From: Massalongia carnosa
Taxonomy: Eukaryota
Assembly: GCA_965645245.1 (NCBI GenBank)
Contig: OZ287067.1
Location: 1,302,001 to 1,366,000 of the forward strand
DNA length: 64,000 bases
Reading direction: 5' to 3'
Translations under genes and position numbers: made by a program
Shown: piece by piece, positions 7,009 through 58,030 of the stretch
Layout of the letters: every line of letters starts with the position of its first letter
How positions within the stretch are numbered: the first letter of the stretch is position 1
The notes under the pieces: generated by a model
Database searches by the model: none
Told to the model about the DNA's origin: nothing
The model's input: only the letters and a program-made list of their open reading frames with translations

Positions 7009-8872
7009 ATGTCGACAGTTACAAAATCAAAATTTCCGCCGGTGGTTATGAATGTGGTCACTGAGCAAATAGGTAATACGCCAATGGTGAAGCTTAATAG
7101 AATACCTCAGAGCCTGGGGATAGAAGCTACCATCTACGCTAAGCTTGAGTTCTTCAATGCCGGGGGAAGTGTCAAGGATCGAATCGCCCTGCGTATGATT
7201 GAAGAGGCAGAGCGATCCGGGAGGATAAAACCCGGAGATACTCTGATAGAACCAACAAGTGGCAACACGTGAGGCCTCCATAGCCTCGCTAAGGCTGAAA
7301 ACAGCTTACCTAACTCTTTCAACAGTGGTATTGGCCTTGCATTGGTCGCAGCTGTAAAAGGTACGAAAGCTCTAGTATTGACGGGTGAAGAACATCGCTA
7401 ATATGCAAAGGCTATAAGACAATCATCACCCTCCCTGAAAAGATGTCGCCTGAGAAAGTTGCCGTTCTTCGCTCACTAAACGCAACAATCATCCGGACAT
7501 CGACTCAAGCAGCCTGGGACTCGCCGGAATCTCATATCGGGGTAGCCCGGAGGCTTCAGAAAGAAATCCCCAACGCACATATCCTCGACCAATACGGAAA
7601 CCCTGATAATCCACTTGCGCATGAGTACGGGACCGCAGAGGAGATATGGAAACAGACGGATGGGAGGATCACAGCTGTCGTTGCGGGCGCTGGGACAGGC
7701 GGAACAATTACAGGACTGGCAAAGGGCCTTCGGAAACATAATCCAGACGTAAAGATCATTGCGGCGGATCCTTATGGATCTATATTGGCACTACCCGAGT
7801 CCTTGAACCATCAGCATGCCAATGAATCGTATAAAATCGAAGGCATAGGGTATGACTTCGTTCCCGACGTCTTGGACCGAAAAACCGTCGACCACTGGTA
7901 TAAAACCGACGATAGGGAGTCATTTGCCTACGCACGGAGGCTAATCGCAGAAGAAGGTCTTCTTGTTGGCGGAAGTAGCGGAAGCGCCATGGCAGCAATG
8001 GTGCAAGGGGTGAAAGAGTTGAAACTAGGCAAGGACAGCGTAGTAGTCGTGATCCTTCCGGACAGCATCCGAAGCTATCTCAGCAAAGTAAGCCCACCTT
8101 CTTCCCTTGCCCGACCCTACTCTTTTCTCTTTACCCTTCCACACCCAAAATTCCAAATCTAATGAAACCCCCCACGCAACAAAAGTTCGTCGACGACGAC
8201 TGGCTCGCAGCTAACGACCTCCTCCCCCCCAGCCCTCCCCCAACCGCTCCTCCTTCCCCCTCCTCTTCTTTACCAAAAGATCCCTTCGCCGGCGCCACGA
8301 TTCGCACCCTCCGCCTCAAACCCGTTACTACTATCACCTCTACCGAGCCCCTCTCCACCGCTACGGAAACAATGCGTGAAAAGGGCTTCGACCAGCTCCC
8401 TGTGCTCGCGGCCACCCCTAGCCGCAGCGGCAGCCGCAAATTAGTCGGGCTAGTCACGTTAGGGAACTGTCTTAGCTGGATCAGTAGCGGGCGCGCGACA
8501 CCTGAGACGGAAGTGAAGGAGGTCATGTTTCGCTTCGCCAAAGTCGCTGAAGTTGTGACCGGCTTTGGGGCGGCCGCAGGGGGCGGGGAGGAGGACCAGG
8601 TAAGTCGCGATGCGAAGAAGGGCCGAAGATTTGTGGAAATCACGTTAGACACGCCATTAAGGGCGCTCAGCCGGTTCTTCGAATGGAACAGCGCCGCTAT
8701 AGTCACGGAGCGAGAGGAAGAGGACGACAGGGGAGCAAAAAAGCAGACGGAGGGCCTGGGCGAGGGGAAGAAAGTGAGCGGCAGCAGCGCGATGAAGCCT
8801 GTTGCTGTAGTGACAAAGGTGGATCTATTAACGTGGCTGATGCGGCAGAGCAAACTTGTGGATAAAAGTTGA
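7009..8872 (+). CDS. CYS4: Cystathionine beta-synthase
   Basis: [12 protein letters not shown] lysine motif, EPTSGNTG, GAGTGGT, C-terminal CBS domain (GFDQLPV...VVTKVDLL). Confidence 0.95.
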
Positions 8873-9297
8873 AGAGAGGGAGATATTTTCGTAGACGAGC
8901 TGTGCTATAATGTACATTATCAGGGAGGCACGGAGCGTCAAGGGAGGGAGCTTCACGCAGGTAGGCTACTCGTAGAACTATTAGCAAGCTATCCAAGAAT
9001 CAAGAAAACTCTCTCTAATCTCCATGGGTAGTTGGTTCTGGTGCATTCATCCCTCCTTCTTCCCCCATCCCGCTTCCGAATCTCCATAGAAGTGGGCGAA
9101 TGGGAACTGTGGGGAGAGAGAAGTCGGTTATAGGCAGGTTTGTTGAGTCGAGGAATTGACTTATCCAGTGAGTGGAGGTTGCCGAAAAAGGAATTGGCGA
9201 AGTGGTTTGTGTGGTTCACTATACGGTTTCTGACTCCGCGAGTCCTCCGACTGGCTTGACATTGTATGTAAATAACCCAATGTATGTATGCCCTGCC

Positions 9298-10303
9298 TCA
9301 TAGCGCCTCTCCAATCCATGCCCACCAACCACCCACGTCCGGCCCCTCAGCCCCCAGCACATTCCCCCCTACCACGCTCACCGACACGCCCACCTCCTCC
9401 ATCTGCTCAAATTTGAACGGACCCTCTCCCCCATCACCCAACCAGTCCTTCTCCTCCCCTCCCCCATCCAGATCGTTCATGCTGACGCCAGAGTCTAGCA
9501 AGCCCGCGCCGCGCGATCCGCGCACACGTGTGATTTCTGCCTCGAGGGTGGATTTCACTAGCAGAGGGGGCAGCGCGGTGAAGAGGTCGAGTTTGTTGGC
9601 TGCGACGAGGAGGGGAATGGCGTGCGCGGCCTTGGAGGATTTGGAGCCGGCGTGGCGTTTCTGTAGCGCGAGGAACAGGTCGTGCAGGTACTCTGCTGCT
9701 TGCCGAAGACCGTCGACTGCATCATTACCGCTGGTGTCACTGCTGGTGGTGGTAAAGGAAAGATCGGCGGCGTCGACCACGAAGATGAGTCCTCGGAGAT
9801 TCTGGGGCCTGGCGAGAGTGTCGAAGGCGTGATAGCGTAGCTTACCGTGGCCGGGGGTATCGATGAGGAGTAGACACTTTTGACTTTGCAGAGAGGGATC
9901 ATTGAGGGAGCGGTATTTGGCGGAGGCGGTCGTGGTGCTGGTAGGGAGGGAGATCTCGACAGTAAGGGGCACTTGGGAGGTTCGGGTTTCGGCATGATGA
10001 CCTCGTTCGAACTGTTTTATGCGGCGGCGCGGCAGTACAGTGTCAGATTGATTGAGATTTTCGCAGATGGAGCGAGAAAATTGACGATCTTACTAGCGTT
10101 AAAAGAGAGGTTTTCCCAGAGCCGCTGGGACCAACGAGGAGGAAGGAGGGTAGCCCGGTGGAGGAGGTGGTGCTATATATTAGTAGATGGAGGAAGAGTG
10201 GAATGGAAAGCACTACAAGGACAGTGATCACGACTGCTGCCGGCGTCGGCTCAAGCAGCGTCGTAAGCCAGCTCTGAACATTTGTCCAAGACATAATTGA
10301 CAA
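9298..10303 (-). CDS. SRP102: Signal recognition particle receptor beta subunit
   Basis: N-terminal TM helix, GPSGSGKT P-loop, DTPGHGKLR, ANKLD; one intron near 10023-10092. Confidence 0.9.
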
Positions 10304-10855
10304 TGATCCTACCCAGAGGCCAGGATTACATCAAGCGCGAGTATGGAAGTATCTAAGATAAGATAAGATAAACTTGCAGCACTTAATCAGATTAGATTCC
10401 GTGAGTACCCCACTTGCCCTAATCCTATTGATCTGGAGATTTCGTCATCAACGTTGCAGGCATGTCTTCCGCGCATTTAAGGGTCATGACTTTCTAAATA
10501 GGAACTTGTGTGTTAGGTGGTTAAGTCTTTAGGAGGTTCAACTGATACACAAAATAGGTATCTTAGGAACCGGTTCTTCTTATAGGCCCAATCAGGCCTC
10601 TTTCAGCTTTGGAAATGATCGTTATCACAGACTGCATGATTATGCCGATTAATATTGGTTAATGCAGATTACAGGACGAAATCAGCAGGTTCAACTATAG
10701 CAGTTGGTGATGAAGCTGATCATCTTTTGAGAAGGTGAAACACCCTTATAAGCAGTGCGGAAGCTGTGAAAAGAAATACTGGTCAAGAAACATATTTTGG
10801 TCGTGTTTTACGTGTAAGACAGCTAGCGAATAGAAATTTAAAGCGCTTTTGCCCA

Positions 10856-12175: not shown

Positions 12176-14375
12176 AACGCCATGTGACCCACTAACAGAC
12201 GATGCGAGCTTCATCGGTACTCTGCTCCTAGCTTTGCTACCTACATACTCTATGAACATTATTCTCGCAGTAATTAATGTTGAATTTCAACATAACCGGG
12301 ATTTAACATTAGCTCCGTATGCTCCAGCTAAATAACAGTATTTAACCTCAAGCGGGTGTGTTACAGAGTAGAGGAGTCCCAACGTATCTAGAGATAAAAT
12401 ACGGAGTACAGAAAGTGAAATTTGTTGGTGTCTTTTTTCTGTCACATCGACCTTCCAATGACATCATTCTGAGAAACTAAAACTCAAAAATTTGCTAGAA
12501 TTGAGGGCGCAATAACCTATCCGTTCATGTTCCTGGCTTCTCGAGATGATGAGTTAACTCACTCGGAAACAAACCAGCGAACGTACAGAGCACTCCAGAT
12601 CTCCCCTCGACTCTTGCGTCTTTGAGGAACGCAAACTCGCATTATGTGCATGTTTCGATTCGAAACGCCACGTCTATCTACCTCGAACCTGAGAGCCTTT
12701 TTTAAGAAAAAATATATAATAATGCCAGTGGTCCTCATCAAAGGCTTCTCTAATAATCTTATACGATTGCTGCGCTTTCTAAAATTAGAAACTAGCATAA
12801 GAATGAGCTTGTATGTATATATATTATAGAGTTTCTCTAATTTGCAAGATCAATACTTTCCCGGGATTTTGTCTGTATTTGCGGGGTCCTGTCCCTTGGA
12901 ATATGAACGGAGAAAAAGACTTGACTCATGATGATCGCATCTTTCTTTTTTATTAATTCATTAAGCGTATGCATCCTAAGGATATGACGCTGTGAATGCT
13001 ATTTAGGTACATAAACAACAGTCAGGAAATGGAAACCTGACCCTCAGGGTAAAACCACTCCCTAAATCCATATTGAACATTTCGAAAACGTTCTTCTACC
13101 ACGCGGTGCATACACACAGATCTTCAAGCGCTAGGAATCCTATAGACTTGATGAACTAGACAGTGTATCTCCACACGTTCGACGAACGTTCTCTGTTTTT
13201 AACCGTTTGATTCAACGGAGGAAAGACGGGCTGTGATCGAGGGCAGATCATGGTGTCGTTATAAATGGAATTGTGCAAGTGTGGCTATTCCGAATGAATG
13301 GGCTTTCTCGATGTGGTGAAAGGCTTCCGCCTGAAGGGTGTGGCCATTCCGAGTGAATGGGCTTTGTATGCCTTCGAAGTGGTGGATGATCAGTAGAGAC
13401 GTTGATCATTCAAACGGCCACCGAGGTGATTATCCAAAGTCCACAGACCAGTTAGCACGAGCTAATGGCAGGGCACGAAAATACCTGATGGCACCTATTA
13501 AACCTCAAATCTGAGTTTCCATTGCCCTCGAATGTTGTTTATGCGTGCGATCTTAAATTAGGGGCTCCAAGGAGTACCAATTGCGAAGGGGTTCGGTGGG
13601 AACTTAATGAAGTAGCAGACGTAACTTTTGATCCTCATAACTGAGTCCCCGTCAGCATTGTTGATGCGGCATGTAGACTAGATATACATAGGATTATACT
13701 AACGTTATGATAGGTAATTGCGCAATAGCTATCGGCTACACTCAGAAAGTCACAACAACATGGGATGTATTAAGAGGCGTAGTCGACAATATTCTCGCAT
13801 AGCGTATCACGAACACTTTCCTGGTTCATTCTGGTGGTACAGCCATCTCTCAAGCTGCAAAGGGTTGAAAGAGGGGTGTTGGGCGTAACAGCATGCTGCA
13901 GGCACCTCAGCTCCTTTTCGATATTGAGGTCGTAATCTACAAACAAGATACTTTTTCAGGTCCGCCCACCTCAACCTCTACCTGGGCTATAATCTCAAGC
14001 AATACCGGGGGCATCAGGCAATGCCCAGCTCCACATAGCGGGCGCGGTTTAAAAAAAGCATTGATCTCTTGAGACGCCCTCTTGCCGGCTAGCTGGGAAG
14101 AAAGTGCCATGTAGGCCTGAGTAGGCATAAACAAGATATATCATTTTTGTATATCATATAAAAGTTTTTAGGGTAATAGAACATGGGCAAACATCATATC
14201 TATGAAATAAGTTCAAGGAAATTAAGAGCCTGAGGTGTAGTTACTTAAATCCAGTCTTACGTAATGTGTCCACCTTCTGCTACCATCATCCTACTCTTAC
14301 TCTAAGTCTCCCTCTCTATGCACATAACGATGAGATGATCAAATCAAACGAATATCTGACGCCAGGATCAACGAA

Positions 14376-30674: not shown

Positions 30675-31884
30675 ATGTCTAATTACGACGACAACAACAC
30701 CGTAAGTTCTGCCTTACTCATTACTCTACGAAGCTTACCTATATTTTCCGTAGAGCCGTGGCTCTGGAGGCTACGGTGATGATAATACCTCTGGAGGAGG
30801 ATATGGTAACGACAAATCCTCGAGTGGAGGCTACGGTGTAAGCTGTTGAAACCTACACTGCCATGTGTTTGTTAGCTTGAGCTTACACGTTGAAAAGGGA
30901 AACACTGGCTCAGGACCTGCTGGCGGGGGTTACAATGTATGAGTCTAATGCTTCTTGATTGATGGACCAATTCCTAATAGGTTACTTTTTCTACCGGATA
31001 GAGCAAGAGAGGTGATGATGATAACCTGGGGGTGTGTGCTACGAAGTTTGCAAAGCTCTATACAAATTGACTAATACTATGTACAGTCTTCTGGGCGTGG
31101 CGGTGATGATTACGGAGTAAGTACTGAAATATTCATTCCATTATTTGCAACTGGACTTTTAACAGGCCGTAGTCTTCTGGACGTGGGGGTCTAGGCTCTG
31201 GTAGCTCGGATAACTATGGCGTATGTCGTTGCTAAGCAGCCTTTTATTTGGGTTCCCCTTAACGACTTCTAGTCTGGAACCAAAACTCGCGGCAGCGGCG
31301 ACGACAGTTACGGCTCTGGTAATACTGGCAGTGACAGCTATGGCTCCAAAAACACGGTCAGTGATAGCTACGGTTCTGGAAATACCGGCAGTGGTAGCTA
31401 TGGATCCAAGAACACCGGCAATGACAGCTACGGCTCAGGCAATACTGGCAGTGATAGCTATGGTTCCAAGAACACCGGCAATGACAGCTACGGCTCAGGC
31501 AATACTGGCAGTGATAGCTATGGTTCCAAGAACACCGGCAATGACAGTTACGGCTCAGGCAATACTGGTAGTGATAGCTATGGTTCCAAGAACACCGGCA
31601 GCGACACCTACGGCTCAGGCAATACCGGCCGTGGTACAGGGGATGACAGCTATGGATCTGGGGGCCAGTCTGGTAGCGGCTATGGCGACAACAACAGTAT
31701 GTGATTACCCGGCTATTACTAGTCCCCAACAAGCAGAAGTGGAAATTACTTTACTGATAATTGTTATTATGCAGCATCTACCAAAGATAAGGTCATGAAT
31801 ACAGTGGGCGGTCTTTTCGGTAAGGATAAGAAAGATCAATCATCTTCAGGAGGCTATGAAGACAACAGCCGTAGCAGTTACTAG
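30675..31884 (+). CDS. Gly/Ser/Asn/Asp/Tyr-rich intrinsically disordered repeat protein (hydrophilin-like), 8 coding exons
   Basis: Seven GT-AG introns join exons into one frame: MSNYDDNNT...(DSYGSGNTGS DSYGSKNTGN)n...STKDKVMNTVGGLFGKDKK...SSY*. Confidence 0.8.
31303..31630 (+). repeat. Coding tandem repeat, 60-bp unit made of two 30-bp halves, about 5 copies
   Basis: GACAGCTACGGCTCAGGCAATACTGGCAGTGATAGCTATGGTTCCAAGAACACCGGCAAT repeated. Confidence 0.92.
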
Positions 31885-33141
31885 GAATTTGGCAACCTAC
31901 GGGTCTCAACGCCTTGGCTCTCAAGAGAGAATACGATGAAGCTTTAGATGATCCTTTTTGTGCTTTTCATTGCAGTGTTCTAGCTCTAATGCAACAACAA
32001 GATGTGCATAAGCAAGAAACAAACCTGATATAAATATGTATTGACGTTTATTTGGTTGTAGAATGAGGGCTTGTACCCTATATATGAAAGGTAGAAGACT
32101 AACCCGCAACGAAGCAGTAACCCTACTGAGGTAAAAACCCTCCTATTGGCCAAGTTGATGAGCTAACTCAATAGAGCGGACTAAGAACTCTTAAATCCAA
32201 ACGCATGTTGTGGCGTTGGAACACCTAACCAGGGTTTCTGCTTCGACATGAACTCTAGCCCTAAATAACCTAACTCGTAATTCTCCGTAAGTGGTGTAGG
32301 GGGCTCAGTTATATATCCCATCTCTCTCGACCTAGCTACCTAAGCAACAACCCCCCCCCCCCTATCTCCTCACCCCTCATAATTTGTATTCCCGTTTCCG
32401 TTTTCATGGCAGCAGTAGCAACAGCAACAGCACCGGCTTAAGGAGGCGGGGAACCCCTCATCGATTGACCTACTCGGATAGCTGGATGATTAAAAGTGGG
32501 TAGGTGGGATGGGTAGGTTGAACCGGAGGGGTTGGGTGGGTTGAACGGGTAGGTTAGTTGGATTGATGGATGGGTAGGTTGGAGGTCGAGTTGGAGGATG
32601 TGGGTTGGAGAGTAAGGAGGAGGATGCCGATACCGAGGAAGAAAAAGGGAGACACGGATAAAGAAGTAGAAGTGTACGATGAAAGGATACATACCGTTCC
32701 GTACACATATCGGGACATAGCATAGTTCTGTATAACATATCAATCTCTATACCCTCCCTTTCGCCCGGGTTCGTTCGTCACTTGTTCAGCCCTCTCTACT
32801 CATCCATCTTCGTCGGGCTTTCTAAACCGACAGACACAGACTAGCTGGCTGGCTGGGCTGAGTATGACCGACCTTCAACACTTACGTCGTAGAACTAGGG
32901 TAGGCTGTGCCGTCCCGCTCACTATTGGCTGCCCTTGATTTTTTCATTCACATTTAAGTGGAAATCCAATAACTACCTTAAGGGCGGTTGGGGGTATTCG
33001 GACATGGCCTTGAGATGGTCTCAAGATATTATTCACTAGAACGTACTTGTCATAGTCTATCTACTAAGTGACTACGTCAGTCAAGAAAGCAAACAGTGTT
33101 CAGATATTTTATTTTAAAGACAATCTCATGACTTTGTCATA

Positions 33142-33783
33142 CCACCACAGAACGCATCAAGGAACGCTGGGACTCCAAATGGAAGACGTACCAGAACCGC
33201 ATTCCCCGCCCGACAGAGGCACAGTTGGGATCTCTCAGTAGGACGAGACTGAAGATTCACAACAACCTGATGAAAGCGGAAAGCGCGCTAACCACGCAAA
33301 TCCGCACCGAAAAAATAGTCTTGGCAAACTTCCTGTTCAATCGTCGGGTACCGGGCGTTATGACCCCGGCCTGCTCGTGCGGATGGCAGAAGCAGACAGC
33401 CAAACACATTATTCTACATTGCAGGCTAATCGACGGCAGATACGAAGTGCTAAAACAAATAGGCACCAACGACTATCGAACGATCATGAGCTCGTCGAAA
33501 ATGTTGAAAAAACTAACCACATGGATAATAAAAGCAAATTTGCTGACCCAATTTTCACTAGCATCGCAACTGTTATACGAGTGATAACTCTCATTTTGTC
33601 AAGGATTTCACAGAACATCGAGCGAAGAATGCAGTCCAGCAACGGAACACGTTTGGGATAATGGCGCAGTCTACATGGTTTTTATCCCTTTAAAAGGTTT
33701 TCCCTGTAAGAATAAGTAGATAGCCTGCATGGGCCGGCCTTCGGCCGGTGTCAGATCGGTACAAGAATCAATCATCATCATCA
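33142..33783 (+). mobile_element. 5'-truncated non-LTR retrotransposon (Tad1-like LINE 3' end) inserted in the large transposon
   Basis: ORF2 C-terminal zinc knuckle QIRTEKI...CSCG...QTAKHIILHC, (ATC)n tail, 16-bp TSD TCATGACTTTGTCATA at 33126-41 and 33784-99. Confidence 0.9.
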
Positions 33784-34107
33784 TCATGACTTTGTCATAA
33801 CTAAAATATCTTATAACGTGGAACGCATGTTTCTAACAACAGAATCTCAAGACGATCATGGTTTGAAGATTTTCATCAGACTAGCTCAAGATTCTTCTGA
33901 GTCAGGAGTGCTTTAAACAGGGTGACAGGGTAATATTTGGTCGACATGATCTCAAGTTTTTATTTGTGTTAGAGCCGAGTGCAAATAAAACATTTTCTGC
34001 GATCAAGCTATCAGCTATCTGGAACAAACCTGAGGCTAAATGTGGCTGCACCAACAACTCTAAGTACAAAAACATCTTTTCTTCATACTAGTACAAAAAG
34101 CAAATAT

Positions 34108-34945
34108 TCAGGAACTAAAACCGTCCTCATCTTCGTCCTCGGCCTCGGTGACCTTCATTTCATCCATGATAGCGCTAAATTCCTCCATCTTTGGATTATT
34201 CGACGATTCCTTTCTTAGGCATTTTGCCCGAGCTGGTTTCAATTTGAAATGATGTGGCTTAATGTTTGATATTTTGCCATTTGAGGAAATGTATCGTAAA
34301 ACTCTAAAAGAGAGGTTCGATATGTGCCTTCGGCTCTGGGTGCGTCTAAGTACACTTTCGGCTTGACAGCGAGATTTAAAGAATATACTTGTTTCATATC
34401 AATATGTAAATTCCATCAGTTCTCGTATGCCTTGTCACTTACCTTTAATCCAATAGGGCCCTCGAGGCATTGCACCCTTCTTTGAAGACTCGTGGAACAT
34501 CAGAGTCATGCTCGGATTCCAGCAGCCCTAGGTTGTCTCTCATGATAGCAGACTGTATGTAGTCCTAAAAACAGTTAGAAGTCGAGTATAAACGCTAATA
34601 GCAAGCTACATACTTTCATACACTCTAGAGAGCGATGTTTCCACGTTGAAACATTGGATTGCGCCTTGGTGATTCCCTTCCTGAAATATATGTCTTCCTC
34701 ATCTACGTCTTCTCTTATTGCATTTCGAACGATGTGCGCTATTTGATCTGCGTCCAGCTTGCCATAACGCAGCGCAAATGGCCGCAAAGAAGCCTCCATT
34801 CGCATGGCTATTACTTTCCATTCGGAGGTAATGGCTTGTCTTCTCCGCGTCTTTTTGGTTGATATTTCTGCCGCTATTGATCTAATTGTGTTTCGGCTTG
34901 CGTTAAAGGTTCAAGGACCTCTTCATTTGACGGTGATACGTTCAT
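34108..34945 (-). pseudogene. Spliced cargo gene of unknown function, divergent from the transposase, disrupted
   Basis: Coding-like exons (MRMEASLRPFALRYG...; C-terminus EEFSAIMDEMKVTEAEDEDEDGFSS*), GT-AG introns near 34553-34612 and 34380-34442, premature stops in the 5' part. Confidence 0.5.
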
Positions 34946-35119
34946 AATTGTATTTGTGATATCAGCATTAATGATAGTGCAATCGGAAGAAAGCGCGAAG
35001 CAGTAAAGACGAATGCTAATGTTCTGAAATAGTGTGCTAAAGCCCTAAGAATTAAAATAGCAACGCACAAGTGATTCTTCATGAGAATAACTCACCTGCG
35101 CACAGAATTAAACTCATTT

Positions 35120-38100
35120 ATGAGACAAGATGCCTCGTTGCGTATATCAGGATGATGCGACGGAGAATATGATGCTCGACGAAGGTCATGTTTTGAGAAA
35201 GAGAAGAAAGCATAAACCATCGACACTGCTTCAACCGTTCCAGCAGTAAGTCTTCTTCATATCAGTCTGAATAAACCCGACCTTGATGATTTCAGTTTTC
35301 AGGGTCCTCGTCTTGAGGAAAAGGCATTGATTGTTCCAGCATCCACTGTTCAGAGCAGTGTCCCACGGGCCAACCCACTGCCTTCCAAAAGTCAACCGAT
35401 AGACTCCCCTGGCCATGGGTCTACGCAAGCCGGTTCTTCATATCAACACAATTCTGTACATATTCATGAGAAGCAAAAGCAGACCCAGAGTTCAGAACGA
35501 ATGACAATGGCGCATAAGAAGCGAACCATAGAGAATCTCAATAAAACCCAACCATCGTCTAACCAAGTTCCTGAACAACACGTTCAAGACAATTTGCCAG
35601 CCGATATAGAGACGGTCTTCGATAAAAATAGTGATTATGAGCGGGAAACTGATGAAGAGTTTCAAAACGTTCATACTCGGCCTGCTTTAATAGCTGATAC
35701 ATCGGCCTTTACTGTCAGCTTAATTTCTTCAAATGCTATCATGAAATTGCCATCCAATCAGCTCGCGGACTTTGATATAGAAAGCACAGACACCGCTGAG
35801 TCTTTCAACGAGTTTGCCCCTTCTGCTCCTGAAAGCACGATTGATGATGAGATCCGGGTGCCCTCCCGCCCAGTACGAGGAGAAATATCGGATTTCTGCC
35901 TGGCTCTCGGTCTCTGGTGTGATAAAGAAGGCATCAAGCGACGCACCTATGATGGCCTGCTCGAAGTTTTGCAATTGCTAGACACTCATGAAGTGCGAAA
36001 TTTGCCAAAGCGACTATCAACTTTGCACTCCTGGTGCCGTAAGCGCCTTCCTCTTCCATCCATTCAGAAGGCAGCGGTATCAGTACGACGAGAAAAACAA
36101 CCCACCGGAACACCAAGACCGGCTCAAGCCAACGTCTATTACTTCGATGCTCGAACTATTATCAGTATCTTACTTTCACCCACAACTCAACGAAACATTC
36201 ATATCGGTATGGCAGAGATCGTTGATAGTCCTTCGGAATACTGGCATTCAAACAGTTGGGGTTCTTCTATTCGTACATGTTCCACTGATTTTGCGAGATT
36301 TCCCGATTCATCTCCTATTTTTCCCTCTGACATTGTGTAGTATCGCTGTGGCAATGAAAAATGTGGGATTATTCATGATAGTCACTGCGGACAGTTCATT
36401 TTTTTTGGACGTGATCGAAGATCGCGATCTTTGACCCTAGGTCAAACTCTTGTCAGGATTCGTCCTTTGATAAGTAGAAAGAACGTCAACGAATATCCAG
36501 TTCCAGTCACGTTTGACTGGCCCGAAGATCAGTTGCTTTTGATAGAAGACGCGGATCAAGATGTCTTATCCGAGCATGTTCTAGCTCGCCGTTTCGATGT
36601 TGCAATTTGTAGGAATGATCAAGTACGGTCTACAACGCCTGTCTTAATTCGTCAGATACTCAACGTCACGCGATGAGATCTTAGATCAATCAATCTTTCA
36701 TCCCCGATTCGAACGGAATTAGAATTAGAAGTCTTTGGTCGAGAGTACCTAATCTCACAGCTAATTAAAGGAGTTCAATCATATCCCCTTGTCATTTTCA
36801 TCGACGATTTCGGGTTATATCGAAACATGTATCGTTCCATCACTGGTGTCCATGCCATGCCAGCAGGCTTGCCCGCCTCGGAACGTCAAAAGAGTTTTAA
36901 TGCTTACACCATTGCTCTTGGCCCGCACGGATCCGAGTTTAACGATGTGATGAACTGTCTTCAAACCAGTTTGGGAAACATGGATCGTGGTTGCATTCTT
37001 GAAATCAATGGACAGAAACAAGCGGCTTGGGCCCCGATTCTAGCATATCTTGATGATATGAAGCAGCAGCAAGCCTCCGGAGGGTTTCTTGGGCCACGTG
37101 CCAACTATTGTTATCGCTTTTGTGATGCGGGCCTCCATAATCGAGGAGATTTGCAGCGGGACATTCTACTTCATAGTCGTTATCATCATGAGGTGTTGGC
37201 TATACGAAAAAAAAGCCTAGCAATAAAAGGAAAGACAAAGAGACTGGCATATCTTACACGAAATGGGCTCAAACCCGAATCTTCTGCGCTTCAGACATTA
37301 ACGCCGGCGCTTGATCTTATCATGAGTTATCCACCGGATCCGGCTCATAGCGAGTATTATGGACTGGTACGAAGATTGTACCCTCTTCTTTACACGAAAA
37401 TACTCACGAAACGGGCTGCTGAAGAGTTTACAGCTGCCTTGCACTGTTTTCCGTTTCCCACCTGGCTGGGGCCGAATACAGTCTCCGGCTATTCATATGG
37501 CCTCGTGGAGTATGAGCGAATGCGCTCGTGCCTCAGTCGTAATACCTCTACTTCTTCGCTGTTGGTTAAGAAACCATCATGTATGACAGCCTTTTCGAAA
37601 TGGATTGAAAGTTCAGTTTCCTAAAGAACGTCGCCATTGCGCTTCAGATGAAGATTTGATAGTGTTTTGCTTTGGGAGACTCGCATGGAGTAACACGTTA
37701 ATCTCGTCTTTCGAATTATCCCTCAAAGATCGTCAAGAATTTCACAGTCAAATCGTCAATGCTCGACAATGTTTTCTAGGTTTGATGAATGCAGCACAAA
37801 ATCCAAAACGACGAGGAAAAAAGAAAGACAACGAGAAAAGTGAGTCTGTCACTGAAGAGTTATCTTCCTGTTGTAGACGAGCATCTATTTCTGAAACATT
37901 CATAAACTCCCTTATTGGTGATACGGAAACTCCATTTGAAGAGACGTCCGTTGATAATCTTGTGTCAGATCCCGACATGAGACTTTCTGCATCAGTGACT
38001 ACTCGGAATGGCGAGGCCGATAAGCTGCCAAACTTTCATATCGGTATGCATTTCGAAAGAGTCATGCAGGAGTATGGTGTTTTCTGGAACGTTAATGTTC

Positions 38101-38951
38101 TCTTGGGAGAAGACAAACATCGCTTTTTAAAGAAAGCCGTATTGTCAACAAATCATCGAAAGCCAGAGCGACAGCTTTTAGTGAAAGCCGCTATCCTCTT
38201 CACTGTCGTCGCTCTATTGAATGGCTCATTTCGTCATACCGATCCGGAGATCACTCTGCAAATGATTCGTTTGAAGCGGAACTGCCCAGCTCTTCTTGAA
38301 AATCTATTATTCCACGGGGATCGCTCACAAACAGACGATCAGGAGTCGACAAATAATTGTCTATTAGAATCTCACTCATATCTAAAAACTACAGTGCGGG
38401 GAAAGCTCAAACTTTCCTATGTACAAAATCAAGTTCTTCCTACCAGAATAACCAACTCCACAGAGCTCCGATTTAGGCAACTGATGCAGACTGCTATGAC
38501 CGGGTATGGCCTTAATGGCGTTCAATGGGGAAACAAGCCTTTGTACTGGTATGAACAATGCCCCTTTACTGTCAGGTCAACCGGCAAACGTTTCTCATTG
38601 CATATTGGCGACTTTCTTCGACTCCGCTCTGGCACATATGCTCAGCTTCGACAAATTTATACTCACTGTCTACCATTTGAGAATATTCAGCGATTATTCC
38701 TTTGGATTCGACCGCTAAAGACCGCTTCCTATAAAGACGAGGTCCTAAATTTGAGCATCTTTCAACTGACAGACACGGATAGAGTGATCCCGTTATTCTT
38801 TGTTGATCCAGATAAGATCTACATTGTTCCTGTTAATCGTACGCTCAATGAGCCAGTATCCTCACATGTCGTGTCGACAATAAGTTCAAACAGTAACAAA
38901 GAATCAGATATGGATTTGTTACACTGTACATGGAGAGTCAACTTTTTGTAA
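35120..38951 (+). pseudogene. Large DDE transposase, CMC (CACTA/Mirage/Chapaev)/Plavaka-like, inactivated
   Basis: Motifs FIDDFGLYRN, YLDDMKQQ followed by CYRFC, PPDPAHSEYYG, KLPNFHIGMHF, NVLLGEDKHR; in-frame stops at 36338, 36674, 37584 and a frameshift near 37459; start approximate. Confidence 0.75.
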
Positions 38952-39253
38952 AAAAAATCGTCATAACGACTGAACTGATATTGTGTGAATTTAGGACAAC
39001 ACTTTCGCTAGCCCCAAAGATCAACGTTGATCTTCATTTCACTTCATCTATCCTCTTTCATCTTTACCTTCCTTCCCATCCGTCATTGATTTGTTCTTTC
39101 AATCCTGTTGCTCATTCCTTCTCCATCTGAGTACTACTATCGATCTCTTCTCGATCATCATTTCTTAAACTGGAATGATCGCCTGACTTGATTTTGAGAT
39201 ACAACCTCATCTCACATTACTATCACAGGTTTCAGCCTCTACTTATCCACATC

Positions 39254-42200
39254 ATGGAAGAAAATGTTTATTTCTTATGATATCTTCATCTAAAGCTTTT
39301 AACTTACCTTTTTTTCAGACGATCCTGATCACGCCTAGAAAAACGAGGAGAGCAGTAAAGAAGGATATAGATAAGAAGATGACGAATGAGAACTTGGACA
39401 CTCATGCCAAGTTTTTCAAGAATGAACCAAAGACAGCCGCTTATTTATGATACAGCGATGTCGCCGAATATAGAAAGTTTCGGTTCAGTAATGTTGTACT
39501 GGAATAGTATATTCCATACCATCAAAACTGTCAACAGAGAAGTGTCAAAACTCCTCTGGCGCTTCTTCGAGATCTTCCTGACCTGTCAGATGCTTTTTCC
39601 AGCTGACTTAGGTCAGCTTCTTTCAAAATATCCCATTACAAATCAGGATGATAGGGCCAACAGGCGTCAAAACAATGATAGCAGAGACTATCTATATGCC
39701 GCCATACTTTTTCGGCTCGCAGAAGCCATTGATGAAGTCTCATCCACTAGATCTTATGATGTTGAAAGACACAGAGCGGCTTCAAACCGATCTGAACAAA
39801 TTCTAAGTTCGAATATACCGAATATCAAGATTCCCGCATACAATGACACTGTCATACAGTATCCCAAACTGGGTCCCTTGCAAAAGTTCAAAGAAGACGA
39901 GTTAGAAAGGTATAGCCGGACCAACTCGATTTTAAAGTCTTTACAATGTGTCCTCGCGCCAACAAAGTGGAGGAAACATTCGTCAAGGCAAAAAGCTCAC
40001 CATACGCATCCACTTTGATCTCTGCTGACATGATACCCTCTTGGATGCGGCCTGAGGAGTCGCAAGATGATCTTTCTATTACTATTGCTTCTGTCGAGCC
40101 AACCGAATTGATACGAAAATCTTTCATATTGTATCTGGATCGTCATCAGAAGACCGAATTCAGTTCAAAGCTTGACAAGCATGTTCAGGAGTTTATCGTG
40201 TTCAATGGTTTACGCCTTCCTGAGAGCAATGTGCAAGTAGAGCGAGATCCACGTGCATATCCAACTGGTGAGATGTGGCAAGATACTCTGCGCCGACAGC
40301 TCCACTTTGAACAACTTTGTGTAGACTTCTTGACAATGAGTCTTAGTGTAAGAAATACAGACATACCGATACGAGAGTTGTTGATCTACGACCTAAATCA
40401 CCTCTCTACTGCAGCTTCCTGGTCGGAGGTCCTGGAATTTCTTGCCAAAAAGGATGTGGACGAGTTCATATTCTCTTATACTCTGCATGTCATTGAGGAG
40501 CATGAAGACTTTGACTATGAGCATGACGGACCACTCTTGGCAATTCTGAAAGACATTTAGGTGACGGAAGACAACGATGTAGCTGTGAGATCTGTGGTCA
40601 ATCTAGTGAGCACGCAATCTATTGATGAAGCTTTCGAGAAGATATCACAAACGTCACAAGCGCTCGAGGACACTATGCCAATGCAAAATGACTCATAAAA
40701 CATGGACTCTAGCTTAATGAAAGAACCCTATTCGCGGTCTTTGCAGGATAAACTGCAGCAATTTTTATCTAGTGATTCCACGATTGCGCGGAAAAAAGCC
40801 ATTCCGCAGTCATATTTTGACTCAAAAGCAACACTCGGAAATGCTTCTATACCATGAAAACTTCGATGTTTTTACCGAAGAAGGTCTGCTACGCTGGCAA
40901 CATCATGTACTGGACAAAGTCTGCGGTCAGATGCGCAAGGCTTTGAAGGATAATAGTATCTTGAAGCTCAGTAGAAAGGTACGAGAAGAGCTACAACAAG
41001 CTCAAACTGATAGCGAGACCGCACTTCTCTCAGCTGAGGTATTTATTCAATCTCATATCAGTTTGAAGTTGACTCTAACATGTCTTGAAAAGCCCGTTTC
41101 CGTTCATGATCTCAAACGATTTTTGACATTCAAAACGCTTTTACAGGCAGCGCATCACAGACCGGTCCACCTATTGCTATCTGCAAGATAATACTCGGCA
41201 TGAAGTTCATTTTCAAGCACGGTCAAGCACAGCTGCTTGACAGAAGCGTTTGTACCCTCATCGGAGATTGCAAAGTCGATCCTTTTCGTCAGAGGTGCAG
41301 AACCTGCTTGTCGACTTATTGAATGAGTCGAATAAATACGTCAAAGAGGCACACGAGAGTCAGAGAGGACACGAGATTCTGAAGGAAACGAATTTTCTTC
41401 CCACAGAGGGCTCAAATAACCCGATGAATGTCGAGTTTGACGAGGAGACCGGCGGTAGATTAGCTATCACGGTGCAAGATTCAATGGACATTGATCTCGA
41501 AATACAGTCACGAATCCTGCACCCCGAAAACGTTAGAGACCTGATAGATTCGCGGATACAATGCTGCAAGATGATTTTTATCAAGAGTATGTTCAAGGTA
41601 AGCGCCGTAAGTTGAAGGGCAAAGCATCCATGGACGAAGATGTGGATGAAGAAATTTCAGATCGGTTTGAGGAAGACTCATCATTTAAGGCCAGTGAGAA
41701 CGAAGAGGAGAACTATGACGAAGAATCCGACGTGACATCGGATGATAGTGATGATGCTTTTCAAAGTGATGAAGACGGAGATGAGATAACTGCCTTGAAA
41801 GATATTGTTTTGGAGACGATAACGACCAAGAAGTTGAGACAAAATTACAGCAAACTAACTTCAATCGAGCAGGAGCAATACAATCAAGATAAAATGAACT
41901 TGCAATACTTGTTGAGCTTGTTATCGACAAGAATCTACACTGTCGAGGATTTAAACGACGTTGAAATACTTGATCGAGCGTTGAGGCTACTCTTTCATGC
42001 TCGGTTTGGTCAAGATCAGCAATATATGAGGATTAGTCCTCACGTCACTTACGATAAATTACCAAGCAAAGTGTCGAATGCTATCAAAGCTAAATTGCAG
42101 GTGGAAGAACAACATGTCAAGCAATGTTTGAGCATACTCAATGCTGCTGGAGTTTTGTGAGAGTTCTTCCCATTCTGCTGGCATTGATGATGCAACTACA

Positions 42201-42366
42201 GCTGACAGACGATAGAGAACCTAAAGTCATGCCAAAGCAGGCTTTCTTGGAGAAGGCCATTTCCGAGAAGGACGTCTCCGAGAAGGCCGTTTCCGAGAAG
42301 GCCGTCTTAGAAATCTCCTCTGGAATATCCTCAGGCGAGAAGGGTTTGTCAGGTCAAAACAGCTGA
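39254..42366 (+). pseudogene. Large (roughly 900-1000 codon) cargo gene of unknown function, disrupted
   Basis: Consecutive same-strand ORF fragments broken by stops (40558, 40696, 41189) and frameshifts; acidic stretch 41630-41790; 15-bp EKAxS repeats at 42250-42310. Confidence 0.6.
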
Positions 42367-44043
42367 GTTTTGCCGACACTCTCCATCATAAATTCGGTGC
42401 TTGATGCTATCCCATTCAAACTTGTATGAAAGAACTGAGACTAATTTATTTGTTGCGTCAGGCTGCCCTTTCTCCTCCATAGTCGCTTGGTACGTTGTGT
42501 TCTCTGCGCATATTGCAATTCAAGCTAACAGTCTTATTCTTCAGGTCCTCAAGGCACGTCTCTTGTCTGCCTTGTTTCATCGGTTTCATACATGTTGTGA
42601 GAGGAGGTACGGGAATGACTCGATGGAGCCATTCAAGACTAGATCGTGCGAGACAGCAACGAGAACAGGAAACATGGCATGAGGATGATAGCATTCATAG
42701 AGCTGTAAATTAGAAGCTGTCACTAAATTAATAACTTGTTTTCCTAATCATCATTTGGGCGAATACAGCATGTGAACTCGAATACAACTCAGCTGTAACG
42801 AGGTTGCATGGACGTGATATCTCTTTTATAGGATTGTTTTCTGATCGTTTTATCCGGAACACGATCTTGAAGGTCTTGAGATCTTTTCAAAACTGAGACG
42901 ATCTTCAAATCATTGTCAGATGCTCTTTAATGCAAAGCACTGTTCATACCAATATGAATGTTCACTAAGATATATCCTTTTCAAGACTATCGTATTTTCC
43001 AAATGATATCAGACTCTATATGATCTGCAGATATTTCTCACCAAATAGAAGCAGAATTTTAAGCTATATTACACGTGCAGGACAATGTTGAATCATCTCA
43101 ATCAGCAAAGCGCTCAAAAAAACATAAAAACCGGGAACCTTCCGGTGTACCTAGTTTAGCGAAGACATGTCCGGGATCTTGAGACCATTCCAAGACCATG
43201 TCCGAAAACTCCCAACCGCCCTTAAGGTAACTTAGAGTTTTCATTCATGGGTCAAGATAGATAGGTATGTCATCTCGCGCTAGATACCCAGGTACATAAA
43301 ACATAGCCCCCCCCTTTTGCCTACGACAGAATGACTGGTTGATTAACATGAGTACCCTGTAGACAAACCTCAACCCCGAAACAGAATACATAATTATAAT
43401 CACTCCGATTGAATGACATTGAATAAGTGATCGAGTGATAGATAAAGCAGATGCTCCGCGATAGATGACTACAAATAGCTAACTTAGGTAGATATCCATT
43501 CCATCATTATCGCATAGTTTTTTTAAAAGAAAAATTTTAAATATAAAAAGGTTAAAGATTTTGAAAGAGTGTTTGACGATCGAATTAGTTATTGTCGAGA
43601 TGTTTTCTCGTTGATTCATTGCTTGCATGATCATAATGATATCGACGACGAAATCTAATTAGATCTTTCTCGTTTTCGAGTTCATTTGTCTTTTGTTTGG
43701 CCGCAAAAATTCACGGAGAGAATAGTGGCTTTTCTTTTTTTGGGGATATTTCGTTGTGTAATAGATAGTAATTGCAGCAGCTCGTATGAGTCTAGCTTTA
43801 GCTCGTATTATATTGAAGAATGAGCAATCATCATTAGCACCATCATCATCATCTATCAGCAATCTCGCATAGAAAGACACAACCGATATAAAATAGTATT
43901 TCGAGAGAGTTTTGCGATGACTCGTCAAGTATTTCCATCTTGGTGACATATGGTTAAGTTTGTGATGAGAATAGAAGACTCGTTAATGCCTTGTCGAGGC
44001 GTCCTTGGGTTTGTAAGAAAAAGTAAGGTTCGTTGATTTTGCA

Positions 44044-45736
44044 TTAAGACATCCTCGGGCAATTTAGTTCCAAGGTCTTTGCCTCCTTATCATCAGTCGC
44101 TGGAACCATTCTCTTGGGCTTCCGAGACGACCTTCTGGGAGAGCGCGCCGCTCCCCCGGAGGAAGAGGAACGGTTTGTCTTGGAAGTCTGTTTCACCACA
44201 GGTCCAAGCAGAGAAATGGGGCATGGGAGACAGACACCACGTAGATCTGCCAGGTAGCAATATTTAAGTTGCCAGCGGGATAATTCTGAAGCGCCTAAGC
44301 TTTTCTCGCCCATCTCGTACGGATTGGTGGACAACATCCATGAGGCCCATTTCGTTACGACTTTTACCGCGTGCTTATGAGGGATCTCAAACCACTCCTT
44401 GTGACTCTTCCAACAGCCCATACATTGCGGTTCTTTTTTGCGGTAGTCATAAAGCTCGGCATGGATCAACTGTTCCACACGATAAACATGCGGCATTGGC
44501 TTTGTTATTGACATTTGTTTCATGAAAATTTTATGCTTGCACTTTCTTTCCCACTCCCTAAACCGTTGACGGGCCGTATGCCCAGTGTATCCGATTTTCA
44601 ACAGACCGAAGTTTCCTCGAACCCAGTAGATGTAAATGGAACCGTATACAAGATCACGTGACCCGAAGCCCTTGGTGATTTCTGTCTCGATCGTTGTTTC
44701 GTGTTGAGCTTGCTGGACTTTGTGGTACGATATGGCACGAGGTCCCGAAGCTTCGCTATATCTGGATTATTGAGCGTCCACTCGTGGTCAACAGGGATCT
44801 CTTGCCAGACCTTGTTATCTGCCATGATTTTTGAATGGCTGCATTGTTGATCATTCATGGGTTTTACCATGTTGCCAATATAGTAGGATGGGATATTTTC
44901 TTTTTCCTTGCGCTGTAATGAATCTGCTTGAGAGACCACTCCTGCTTGGGCGGAAAGCTTGTCGTCTTGAGCTGAACCAGCAAAGACCATGAGCCACATT
45001 TTCCGCTTCTTCTCGAACCCCTTTCTGTGAGATGCTCTACATAAAAGAGACGTTATGAGCAAAGCAAGTTGCAGCAGCCATTGGGCTGGCTCCTGCCCAG
45101 TTGATTCCACAAGGCCACGGAGAAACTTTCGTGCCGTTTGCCTTTCCCCAACTGAGGCTTTTATTGTGTTTTCGCATCGAAGGCCTTTGGCCTTTGTTGA
45201 AGCAATGCAGACAAGGCTGTCACTATCGAGAACAAGCTTGAGTTTAGTAAAGCCCTCAGAAAGGTTTCTTTGTACGATCGACTTCTCATTTTCTTGCTGA
45301 ACCTGCTTTGCTTCAAGTATAGCTCGAACCATGGTAAATTTAGCTAAGGTAGTGCGGATTTCAGATCTGATATTTTCGATCTCAGCTTTTCTAGTTTCGA
45401 TTTGAGCCCTTGTTATTTCAAACGTAGCCTGATAATTATTGATCTTGGTTCCTGGCGCATCGGTCGGAGACAAAAGCATTTTTAATGTAGGCTTCGAGCC
45501 TTCCGAGGCTCCAGGAATTGAAAGGTTTTCTTGGAAGCCTAGCGATTCGAGTTTGGAACATAGGACTTCCAGTTCATGTTTTTTTTTGGACTAGACCTAT
45601 CATCTGCTGTTTGCTTGGTAATGTGGCCCAATCGCCCGCATCTAGACGGGATGGGGTTGATAGGGATATCATGAGCGCTTTCATGTTTGAAAGGTGCTGA
45701 TTCAGCTTCTCCATCTTTCTTGTTCGTGTGTACCAA
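44044..45736 (-). pseudogene. T5orf172/MUG113 (GIY-YIG-like) domain protein with frameshifts
   Basis: GSIYIYW...LLKIGYT...RFREWERKC...RVEQLIHAEL...CMGCWKSHKEWFE; frameshift near 44700; upstream CIASTKAKGLRC...CRASH motif. Confidence 0.75.
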
Positions 45737-56691: not shown

Positions 56692-58030
56692 CACGCGGGT
56701 GAAAAAAAAAGGTCAAGGTGAGCCAAAATTCCCCCACCAAAACTTACCTTTTTCTTCCCCTTTTTCTTCCCCATCTTCTTCCCCATTCAACATCTCAATT
56801 CGTATGACCATTGAAATTCTACATACATTCTATTCAATAGCCAGTCATCGCCCCCTCAGCCCTAATTACCTCTTCCAATCGTTTGGGCATTGATCGAACT
56901 CTTTCATTGATGAATTCCTGCGTCACCCGTTCCCATCCGTCCCTAATCAGCTGCTTCAAGCTGACATCGTCCCAATGAGGATACTTTCGAACATGCTGCT
57001 TCGCTGGCTGCCAGCAATTTTCTATAGGGGACAAACCAGGTGATGAGGCACAATTGAAATAATGCTCTAAATGATGATCTTCCTTCCATTTCTTGACGGC
57101 ATTTCTTGGCTTGCCCGTGCCATGACCAGAGTCTCCATCTTCTTCAAGTACGAAGTCATCCCCACGCTCCAGCCAGGGCTTGACGACGGGGTCAAGAACG
57201 GATTCAATATACACCTGATGAGTCATTTTACCGTTGCCCGGCACGTCATAAAAGATAATATCCGACTTGAAATTGTAGCCAATTGCAGCCCAGCAATGTT
57301 TTCGTTTTCGATCTTTCTCAGGAGGCGGGTCACGATGCTGTATGCAATCCCAACGATATCGTGTTCCGGGCTGACGAATAATTCGTAACTGTCCTTCCGG
57401 CCCATATCCAAAATGAATCTTATCACTAAATCGTACGCGATCCCATTGCTCCGGTTTGGGATATCTGGTCAGCATCATGTGAGCAAATTCGACCCGTCTT
57501 TCCATAGGTGGGTCGGCCAGCCATCCCTTGACGCAGGCCAGACATTTCTCATAGTTTAGAGCAGCCGACATAACATTGTGCATTGTACGATCGACAACGT
57601 CGGCCCCAATCTCCATAGCCAATTTTTCCCATGTGTATCGTTTTCCTTCCAATTGTAGCCCCTCATCTTGTAGAATGTGATCTGCCTCCTGTATTTGTGC
57701 TTCCGTGACTTTTGATTTGCGACCACGTGTCTCAACGAGCGTTGAATGATGTCTTCTTCTAGAAGATGCTCCGTTTCGAATGATCTTATAGCCCTGTCTC
57801 TCGCTTCGAACGCCAAAATGCTGAAAAATCTCTCGAGGATCGATGGAAATGCCTTTTGCAAGAAGAAATTCATAAGCTCCCTGTACCTTGGCCTTTTGAG
57901 GTGTATCGTAGTGGGATGGCATTTGAAATGTTGAATGAGGAAGAAGATGGGGAAGAAAAAGGGGAAGAAAAGGGGTAAGTTTTGGTGGGGGAGTTTCGGC
58001 TCACCTTGCCCTTTTTTTTTCACCCGCGTG
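56692..58030 (-). mobile_element. 1339-bp Tc1-like (DD38E) transposon with CACGCGG termini and 5-bp TSD
   Basis: About 95-bp TIRs starting CACGCGGGTGAAAAAAAA; CCAGC duplicated at 56687-91 and 58031-35. Confidence 0.95.
56834..57922 (-). CDS. IS630/Tc1/mariner-type DDE transposase, 362 aa, uninterrupted ORF
   Basis: N-terminal HTH and GRK motif, RVRFSD, LEEDGDSGHG, SPGLSPIENCW, SMPKRLEEVIRAEGAMTGY. Confidence 0.93.
   Translation of the reverse strand: MPSHYDTPQKAKVQGAYEFLLAKGISIDPREIFQHFGVRSERQGYKIIRNGASSRRRHHSTLVETRGRKSKVTEAQIQEADHILQDEGLQLEGKRYTWEKLAMEIGADVVDRTMHNVMSAALNYEKCLACVKGWLADPPMERRVEFAHMMLTRYPKPEQWDRVRFSDKIHFGYGPEGQLRIIRQPGTRYRWDCIQHRDPPPEKDRKRKHCWAAIGYNFKSDIIFYDVPGNGKMTHQVYIESVLDPVVKPWLERGDDFVLEEDGDSGHGTGKPRNAVKKWKEDHHLEHYFNCASSPGLSPIENCWQPAKQHVRKYPHWDDVSLKQLIRDGWERVTQEFINERVRSMPKRLEEVIRAEGAMTGY

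Follow-up and report, generated by a model that had tools for sequence, protein, structure and literature searches.

What lies between two inverted repeats about 10 kb apart on contig OZ287067.1 of the lichen-forming ascomycete Massalongia carnosa, and can it still move? For the 64,000 nucleotides considered here (positions 1,302,001 to 1,366,000 of the forward strand, hereafter the window), an original prediction made from the sequence had proposed a three-gene transposon bearing terminal inverted repeats (TIRs), ends other than those of CACTA elements and a CMC/Plavaka-like transposase. Our results suggest that window positions 32976-43227 (10,252 bp, CC..GG) represent a single copy, decayed and non-autonomous, of a multi-copy transposon of the cut-and-paste type (class II) with a DDE (aspartate-aspartate-glutamate) transposase of the CMCT clade, for which Plavaka is the nearest named lineage, a reading to which we assign a probability of about 80%. 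The CMCT clade comprises EnSpm/CACTA, Mirage, Chapaev, Transib, Plavaka and ESTA elements, with target-site duplications of 2-5 bp and termini that are 5'-CA..TG-3' "in most cases" (PMC12730594). Coordinates of the features are collected in Table 1.

The inverted arms (32974-33027 and 43176-43229) measure 54 nt with an outermost TA included and are 91% complementary, in agreement with the predicted ~52-bp imperfect TIRs. With up to 3 mismatches allowed, the terminal 17-mer occurred in the 64-kb window at the two element ends only, and 0 of 100 shuffles had two or more matches. A scan of a prokaryote genome collection with this 17-mer returned 13 matches, all in bacterial metagenome-assembled or other bacterial genomes, which we took as chance. 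Contigs of four public runs (X1, X4, X5 and X7) were then aligned to window positions 31000-45000. Summed contig depth rose from 24-30 in the flanks to 236-654 between the TIRs in X1, from ~860-1,150 to 28,000-96,000 in X4, from 155-211 to 1,290-4,150 in X5, and from 1-5 to 32-111 in X7; a depth summed over contigs shows that many similar contigs exist and is not a copy number. Contigs unique to the left flank ended at 33001-33002 in X1, X4 and X5, and those unique to the right flank began at 43200 (X1), 43180 (X4) and 43205 (X5), on both sides within one assembly word of the outer TIR ends, as expected of a repeat border. The X7 flank contigs stopped short of the element ends and are uninformative on the borders. 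Since these unique contigs break off within the arms, the TIRs form the borders of a multi-copy family, in support of the TIR transposon of the original prediction. X1, labelled a lichen metagenome, differed from the window at 5 positions in 1.4 kb of left flank and had the same breaks at the TIRs, so the insertion is common to another strain. Independent support came from a protein collection, in which pieces of the element's open reading frames (ORFs), 87-95% identical, occurred on six or more separate Mb-size contigs.

The homologue search used the first part of the transposase as its query, read through two stops with X. It returned 113 homologues at E ≤ 1e-3, nearly all of them unnamed or "hypothetical" proteins of Pezizomycotina and many from lichen-forming fungi, which fits the poorly described ascomycete lineage that had been proposed. 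The best were P0002 (1191 aa, 57% identity), whose 90% cluster includes a Lasallia pustulata protein, and P0003 (1153 aa, 58%). An alignment of 35 sequences keeps, in P0002 numbering, D495 (FIDxFGLYRN), D579 (GDMxQQQ), C598-x2-C601, D673-P-x-H676-S-E678, P884-N..H887-x3-H891 and G910-E911-x2-H914, so that the D..D..CxxC..DxxH..PxxH..E series named in the original prediction is conserved across the homologues. The DDE triad itself (D495, D579 and E911) is invariant or nearly so in the 35 sequences, with all three residues present in the window copy. These conserved residues match the CMCT pattern of D, D, C(2)C, H(3-4)H and E (Kojima 2025, PMC12730594) and support a place for the family in this group.

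The only Pfam family matched was PF18759 (Plavaka), with matches in 6 of the 35 alignment members at E ≤ 0.01 (best 3.9e-6), as a precomputed match in 4 of the 113 homologues, and in 2 of 12 ORFs from related loci; these matches cover only profile positions ~199-318 of 325. No match to PF02992 (Transposase_21) was obtained at E ≤ 0.01 in the window pieces or the 35 relatives, and none to the KDZ domain (PF18758) in the window ORFs or the same relatives. A sequence search of the PDB with the transposase profile gave 0 matches at E ≤ 1.

An AlphaFold model of P0002, built on the 35-sequence alignment, reached a mean predicted local distance difference test (pLDDT) score of 77 and a predicted template modelling (pTM) score of 0.77. 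Foldseek returned 44 PDB chains at E ≤ 1e-3, and those listed were all RAG1 or ProtoRAG (best 1.4e-7). In VIA-align, the model superposed on the RAG1 core with a Z of 18.4 (467 residues, model 185-986), followed by BbRAGL (12.8) and HzTransib (11.2). As modelled, the protein is an RNase-H-fold DDE enzyme. It shares with RAG1, Transib and ProtoRAG the whole catalytic core fold and, by motif, the zinc-binding CC..HH module, but differs in sequence (~10% identity) and in two additions seen in the P0002 model, a BAH-like domain and a C-terminal beta domain. Transib elements make a 5-bp target duplication. Conserved motifs, the Plavaka-only Pfam match and the RAG1/Transib-like fold together uphold the predicted CMC/Plavaka-like assignment.

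The BAH-like domain occupies model residues 293-465 (~window 36080-36640) as a beta-rich unit ahead of the RNase-H fold. Its likeness was highest to the ORC1 BAH domain (Z 10.8, 137 aligned residues, root-mean-square deviation 3.7), with the BAH domains of AIPP3, EBS and DNMT1 at Z 10-10.8, and it contains the invariant residues G294, W311, S314 and R316. The domain seems to be an insertion relative to RAG1 and, being seen within a whole-protein model, should be treated as a lead only.

Could the locus instead be immobile, with an inverted repeat that surrounds a gene cluster by chance, or be a Starship moved by a tyrosine recombinase? Starships carry a tyrosine recombinase, the "captain", at one end and measure tens to hundreds of kb. 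The window element resembles them as a large fungal mobile element with cargo, and its 10-kb size and extra ORFs are the only points in favour of either idea; it differs in being 10 kb long, in its TIRs and in its DDE enzyme. Repeat borders at the TIRs of a multi-copy family, copies dispersed over at least six large contigs, a transposase of RAG1-like fold and the lack of any match to a recombinase family among the 12 ORFs scanned between the TIRs lead us to regard both as ruled out for practical purposes, and the separation from Starships made in the original prediction stands.

Several observations weigh against a Plavaka-related CMCT transposon, in addition to the caution on summed depth given above. 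The window's own ORF pieces (12 scanned between the TIRs, including plus-strand 35216-38951) matched no Pfam family. Scores of PF18759 in the relatives lie at or below the gathering score (25.0 bits for locus L029 against 26.3, and 21.9 for L008). The terminal rule CA..TG of CMCT elements is not followed, as the window element ends in CC..GG, or in TACC..GGTA if TA is part of the TIR. No intact full-length transposase from the window's species was present among the 113 homologues, and the family may be extinct there.

The predicted ~1200-codon transposase is present, but it is broken by three stops and a frameshift. A TAG stands at 36338-36340, where P0002, P0003 and P0005 have Q, E and Q; a TGA at 36674-36676, where they have R, R and Q; and a second TGA at 37584-37586, where all three have R. 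Near 37457 there is a 1-base frameshift, and other copies in all four runs are without one base at this point. The sister copy P0114 (92% identical, apparently from the same species) has R at the 37584 position and remains in frame across 37457. In the stretch starting at 37103, the conserved zinc ligand Cys598 is replaced by Tyr. With three stops, a frameshift, a lost zinc ligand and a deleted SNF2 core in the second gene (see below), the sequence indicates that this copy is dead and unable to move alone.

Related elements helped to define the ends. Metagenome contigs were scanned with the transposase alignment, which gave 72 loci, and these were searched for TIRs. L001 is a 6.5-kb element with a 53-nt TIR starting TACCTTAGTGG, and L026 a 4.9-kb element with a 36-nt TIR starting TACCATGCC; the L026 family has a further member, L003, which is 98.8% identical to it and homologous from TACC onwards. 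In L029 (5989-13844, 7.9 kb), the TIR starts TACCGTAGCG and matches at 23 of 30 positions, an outlier among the 14,766 TACC/GGTA pairs tested. The TIR of L032 (4.9 kb, starting TACCTTAGCGG, 19 of 30 matches) is tentative: its score fell within the noise of the pair test, and it was kept solely for its likeness to the other ends. L001 also has a perfect 40-bp direct repeat (7080-7119 and 13659-13698) around the 6.5-kb element, offset by exactly TA, as would result if the element had inserted where the two copies of an older tandem duplication met; alternatively, it could be an aberrant long duplication. Upstream of the L029 transposase lie three minus-strand ORFs (168, 225 and 269 codons), for which we found no Pfam match and no relatives in the other loci, and extra genes seem to differ between families of the clade.

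Which bases were duplicated on insertion? The flanks read ..CCAATAAC-TA-CC(element)GG-TA-ACTTAGAG.., and three registers fit the window, as the original prediction had noted: AACT with ACC..GGT ends, AC with TACC..GGTA, and TA with CC..GG. The AACT proposed in the original prediction is present as a perfect repeat at 32971-32974 and 43229-43232, bounding 32975-43228. TA is the sole register that fits 5 of 5 elements (window, L001, L026, L029 and L032), whereas AACT and AC fit the window alone. Under the AACT register, with ACC..GGT termini and a 4-bp duplication as in some Chapaev/CMC elements, the perfect repeat on both flanks would be accounted for (we estimate a chance of ~1/256 for it if TA is given), and such a length lies within the 2-5 bp made by CMCT elements (PMC12730594). 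The corresponding 4-bp flanks differ, however, in L026 (TACT/AGAC), L001 (GACT/AAGG), L029 (TACT/ACTA) and L032 (GCCT/ATGT), although these belong to different families with ~30-43% protein identity to P0002, and a family-specific length is possible. We consider the AACT register unlikely and TA the probable target duplication; the termini are in either case not those of CACTA elements.

Besides the perfect AACT repeat, other points count against the TA register. It rests on five elements from different families, and a 3-bp ACT register also fits L029. As TA is a palindrome, it may belong to the TIR as its outermost bases, in which case no duplication would be recognisable. An empty site was looked for in the four runs, and neither a joint across 32974/43229 nor a full set of copy junctions was found; under the TA register, it would be expected to read ..AACTAACT.. 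with a single TA.

Subterminal TCTCAAG/CTCAAGA motifs had been noted in opposite orientation at the two ends, and they occur as described at 33019, 33845, 33885 and 33950 (forward) and at 42874 and 43177 (reverse). An excess of them is evident only with the TIR included: the top shared 6-mer then scored 7, which 0.23% of 3000 randomly paired window segments attained. Without the TIR its score was 5, attained by 5.6% of random pairs, and the excess there is marginal.

CACTA elements typically have subterminal repeats and a second gene. The window element belongs to the same clade (CMCT) as EnSpm/CACTA, but its family lacks a Transposase_21 match, CACTA ends and a 3-bp duplication. It resembles Plavaka in its probable 2-bp duplication, in the large elements with possible extra genes, and in Plavaka being the sole Pfam family found among its relatives. 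Published Plavaka ends differ from those of the window element, where TA is followed by CC(T/A)T: PlavakaA of basidiomycetes has 2-bp duplications and TGT..ACA ends, PlavakaB of basidiomycetes has 2-3-bp duplications and CATCA..TGATG ends (both PMC12730594), and Plavaka of a truffle (Tuber) has 2-bp duplications and a CATAC TIR motif (PMC12581995). The window family differs further in its separate ascomycete clade, its Pfam scores at or below the cut-off, and a SNF2 gene in the place of a TET/JBP gene.

A position within ESTA (EnSpm-like transposons with TA duplications, from the basidiomycete Pucciniales) is the other candidate among named lineages. The probable TA duplication, the RAG1-like fold and the CMCT motifs agree with traits reported for ESTA (PMC12730594). 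The ESTA consensus, however, starts CACCAC (supplement of PMC12730594), as opposed to CC(T/A)T in the window clade, and the hosts are rust fungi. Plavaka was the only Pfam family matched, and the comparison with ESTA was made on its published description. We regard membership in ESTA as quite unlikely and retain Plavaka as the nearest named relative.

The ascomycete sequences form a group of their own. In an unrooted FastTree phylogeny of 44 rows with local supports, 42 ascomycete-type rows formed one clade (support 100), within which the window grouped with P0003, P0002 and P0005 (support 100) and L029 was placed elsewhere; L041 and L069 formed a separate long branch. L041, L038, L046 and L069 have 26-28% protein identity to P0002 and TAC-TGTACCAAAAAAGG-like ends that resemble published PlavakaA consensus starts. 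Loci with such PlavakaA-like TGT..AAAAA ends were themselves retrieved by the transposase profile (tblastn E 1e-43 to 3e-50). At L049 (8760-21673), a distant homologue of the transposase is enclosed by inverted repeats of 131-153 nt (87% identical, starting CGTGTTGG) at a spacing of 12.9 kb; no duplication is evident, and the locus may represent a large element related to PlavakaA.

These data make it probable that the transposase family is a separate, large ascomycete branch with ends in which TA is followed by CC(T/A)T.., and not CACTA, TGT or CATCA. In the literature examined, Plavaka and ESTA families were characterised from basidiomycetes, plus one report from Tuber, and the fungal CMC entries of Repbase in 2017 came from Basidiomycota and Mucorales (PMC5751038). 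Searches for EnSpm in lichens found nothing relevant, and those under the name "Lanisha" found moss papers only. More tentatively, and with greater doubt than confidence, we propose that the ascomycete clade is a distinct RAG1-like (CMCT) lineage, unnamed in the literature examined, which has CC..GG ends and TA duplications and occurs widely in Pezizomycotina, above all in lichen fungi. Its transposase would have a built-in BAH-like histone-reader domain, and at least one autonomous sub-lineage would have its own SNF2 remodeller.

The original prediction placed two further genes beside the transposase. One is real, although frameshifted and internally deleted, and belongs to the SNF2 family of ATPases. 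A search with one piece of this second gene found one mis-joined, 93%-identical model and two true homologues, and a profile built from these matched 457 representative proteins at E ≤ 1e-3, 240 of them at E ≤ 1e-10. A SNF2-rel_dom followed directly after the shared N-terminal domain of ~550 residues in 15 of 20 homologues scanned (a selection that included the longest), several with Helicase_C. P0132 (Blastenia crenularia, 2330 aa) has an OTT_1508-like deaminase domain before the N-terminal domain and SNF2, possibly through a fused gene model.

No SNF2-related or Helicase_C domain was found in the window copy by Pfam scan. It aligns to residues 13-604 and then 1230-1427 of P0153 (1499 residues), skipping ~605-1229, and contigs of X1, X5 and X7 at 41276/41277 continue into unlike sequence. 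On one side of this point, the continuation translates as ..FLDSQING.., which in P0120, P0126 and P0153 opens the SNF2 domain, and on the other as AVVDLA.., comparable to the AVPDIAT of P0153 just before the C-terminal tail. As other copies keep the ATPase core, the window copy is an internal-deletion derivative, and a full-length element would be expected to measure about 11.5 kb without the LINE-like fragment. Further indels relative to other copies occur at 39594, 39971, 41955 and elsewhere.

Does this gene take part in transposition, or is it passive cargo, a host SNF2 gene or fragment captured by one sub-lineage in the manner of Pack-type or CACTA-like elements? In Pseudogymnoascus, Phyllosticta, Diplodia and Elasticomyces, annotations list full-length homologues (1,458-1,815 aa) as ordinary hypothetical proteins. 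No member of the gene-2 family was found at any of the 72 related metagenome loci, among them the complete elements L001, L026 and L029; this counts against our reading of the second gene and shows that it is not a general partner of the transposase clade. Other families of the clade bear other, unrelated extra ORFs, as in L029, and the window copy has lost its ATPase core. The core is retained, however, by other copies in the same runs, and P0002, the 57%-identical transposase, and the gene-2 homologue P0122 (572 aa) both list one 12,345-bp contig, which suggests that the pairing is conserved in another lichen fungus and points to long co-inheritance. At L018, moreover, a SNF2-related gene and an intact 1012-codon clade transposase ORF (2596-6028 and 7305-10343) lie on the same strand with the former directly upstream; compared with the profile of the gene-2 N-domain, the N-terminus of this SNF2 gene is unrelated (hhalign probability 1%), and no TIRs were found at this locus. 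Passive cargo thus retains a substantial minority share of the probability, and we favour a SNF2 gene that would function with its element.

A second apparent linkage, between P0018 and P0118, was rejected, as their common contig of 176,331 bp is too long to imply adjacency and no homologue of gene 2 lies within 10 kb at the sister locus L015. The N-terminal domain of gene 2 was modelled with AlphaFold at a pLDDT of 76.9 and a pTM of 0.48; the ESM Atlas gave no usable match, and Foldseek none at E ≤ 1e-3. A wide VIA search yielded only a piece of beta-grasp type (PB1/ubiquitin-like, residues 252-387) with Z ≤ 6.6, within the noise range, and no fold was assigned.

Carriage of such a gene has partial precedents. 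Giant Plavaka elements of red algae (PAG1-3) have three chromatin/DNA-modification accessory genes (bioRxiv 10.1101/2025.02.11.637652), and these and TET/JBP-carrying fungal transposons (PMC12730594) resemble the window family in combining a CMCT transposase with the gene of a chromatin- or DNA-modifying enzyme; in the window family, the accessory is a SNF2-family ATPase instead. The portions of the literature examined contained no report of a SNF2-family ATPase as a Plavaka accessory. On SNF2 genes in TIR transposons of fungi, the only relevant passage in those portions was a one-sentence mention of SNF2 helicases in "Inton" and "Enton" transposons (PMC3627910).

By analogy with RAG1/Transib, a multimer of the transposase would bind both ~52-bp TIRs, nick and excise the element, and join its 3' ends to the target with a 2-bp stagger at TA, leaving the TA duplication. 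Intact family members would also carry the SNF2-family ATPase gene with its distinctive N-terminal domain, and the SNF2 protein may help the element to handle chromatin, through access or counter-silencing. If the BAH-like domain is a histone reader as well, the transposon would both read and remodel chromatin, to choose targets or to escape silencing. The features that deserve attention here are the BAH-like domain and the SNF2 gene. SNF2 carriage would fit an emerging pattern of large DNA transposons with genes for chromatin or DNA modification.

Among fungal transposons, Plavaka and related elements stand closest to the Transib/RAG1 transposases, and they are poorly characterised. For their ascomycete branch, the present data provide concrete ends, TA followed by CC.., with TIRs of ~36-54 nt, and allow more than 100 unannotated proteins to be labelled as transposases. 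They also document one family that has multiplied to many copies in a lichen fungus. In lichen-fungus annotations, "hypothetical proteins" and SNF2 fragments of this kind inflate the gene counts.

Table 1. Features of the element and its borders in the window.
Feature	Position	Strand	Basis or remark
TA, probable target-site duplication, left copy (or the two outermost TIR bases)	32974..32975	.	TA directly before CC in window, L001, L026/L003, L029 and L032
Left TIR, starts CCTTAAGGGCGG; contains a small palindrome with the TCTCAAG motif	32976..33027	+	Arm complementarity, 17-mer uniqueness, flank contig ends
Nested 5'-truncated LINE-like fragment	33142-33783 (642 bp); 16-bp target duplication 33126-33141 / 33784-33799	+	(ATC)n tail
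Three more (T)CTCAAG(A) copies, left subterminal	33845..33956	+	Reverse copies 42865-42881 on the right
111-codon ORF specific to the element, doubtful gene	34578..34910	-	No homologues outside element copies
Transposase pseudogene, RAG1/Transib-like DDE, Plavaka-related	35408..38948	+	tblastn of P0002 and P0003, no introns
SNF2-family ATPase gene, cut to N-terminal domain (~600 residues) and C-terminal tail; several frameshifts	39379..~42160	+	Homologue profile
Deletion junction, SNF2 ATPase core missing (~1.9 kb by homologue numbering)	41276..41277	+	Loose contig ends in X1, X5 and X7
Right TIR	43176..43227	-	Arm complementarity, 17-mer uniqueness, flank contig starts
TA, probable right copy of the target-site duplication	43228..43229	.	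Comparison across related families

The other predicted gene, the minus-strand ORF in the left part of the element, is doubtful. It had only 6 matches, 87-95% identical, on six Mb-size contigs that represent other copies of the element, with no Pfam match and no match in the 72 related loci. As it has no relatives elsewhere, it was not counted, and the true gene content of the element is two (transposase and SNF2 ATPase), not three. The three-gene element of the original prediction is therefore not a working one in this copy, which has a transposase pseudogene, a SNF2 gene without its ATPase core and a doubtful third ORF.

The left arm also contains an insertion that is foreign to the original element and landed there. 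Its structure and a Cys/His motif suggest a fragment of a long interspersed nuclear element (LINE), and its ORF at 33132-33581 had no Pfam match. Some copies of the element are without it: contigs of X1 and X7 join 33125 to 33784, skipping 658 positions with 16 shared letters. This LINE-like family is very abundant in the same runs, with a depth of 8513 compared to 28 in the flank (X1).

The surrounding window is gene-rich, with genes for a CLC channel, an RNase PH subunit, TTI1, an eIF2-beta/eIF5-like protein and DHFR. To the right of the element, at a distance of about 0.8 kb, an ORF at 44047-44766 (minus strand) has T5orf172/MUG113 (GIY-YIG-like) domains. Farther along, an ORF with a DDE_3 (Tc1/mariner-type) domain at 56837-58000 (minus strand) marks another transposon in the window.

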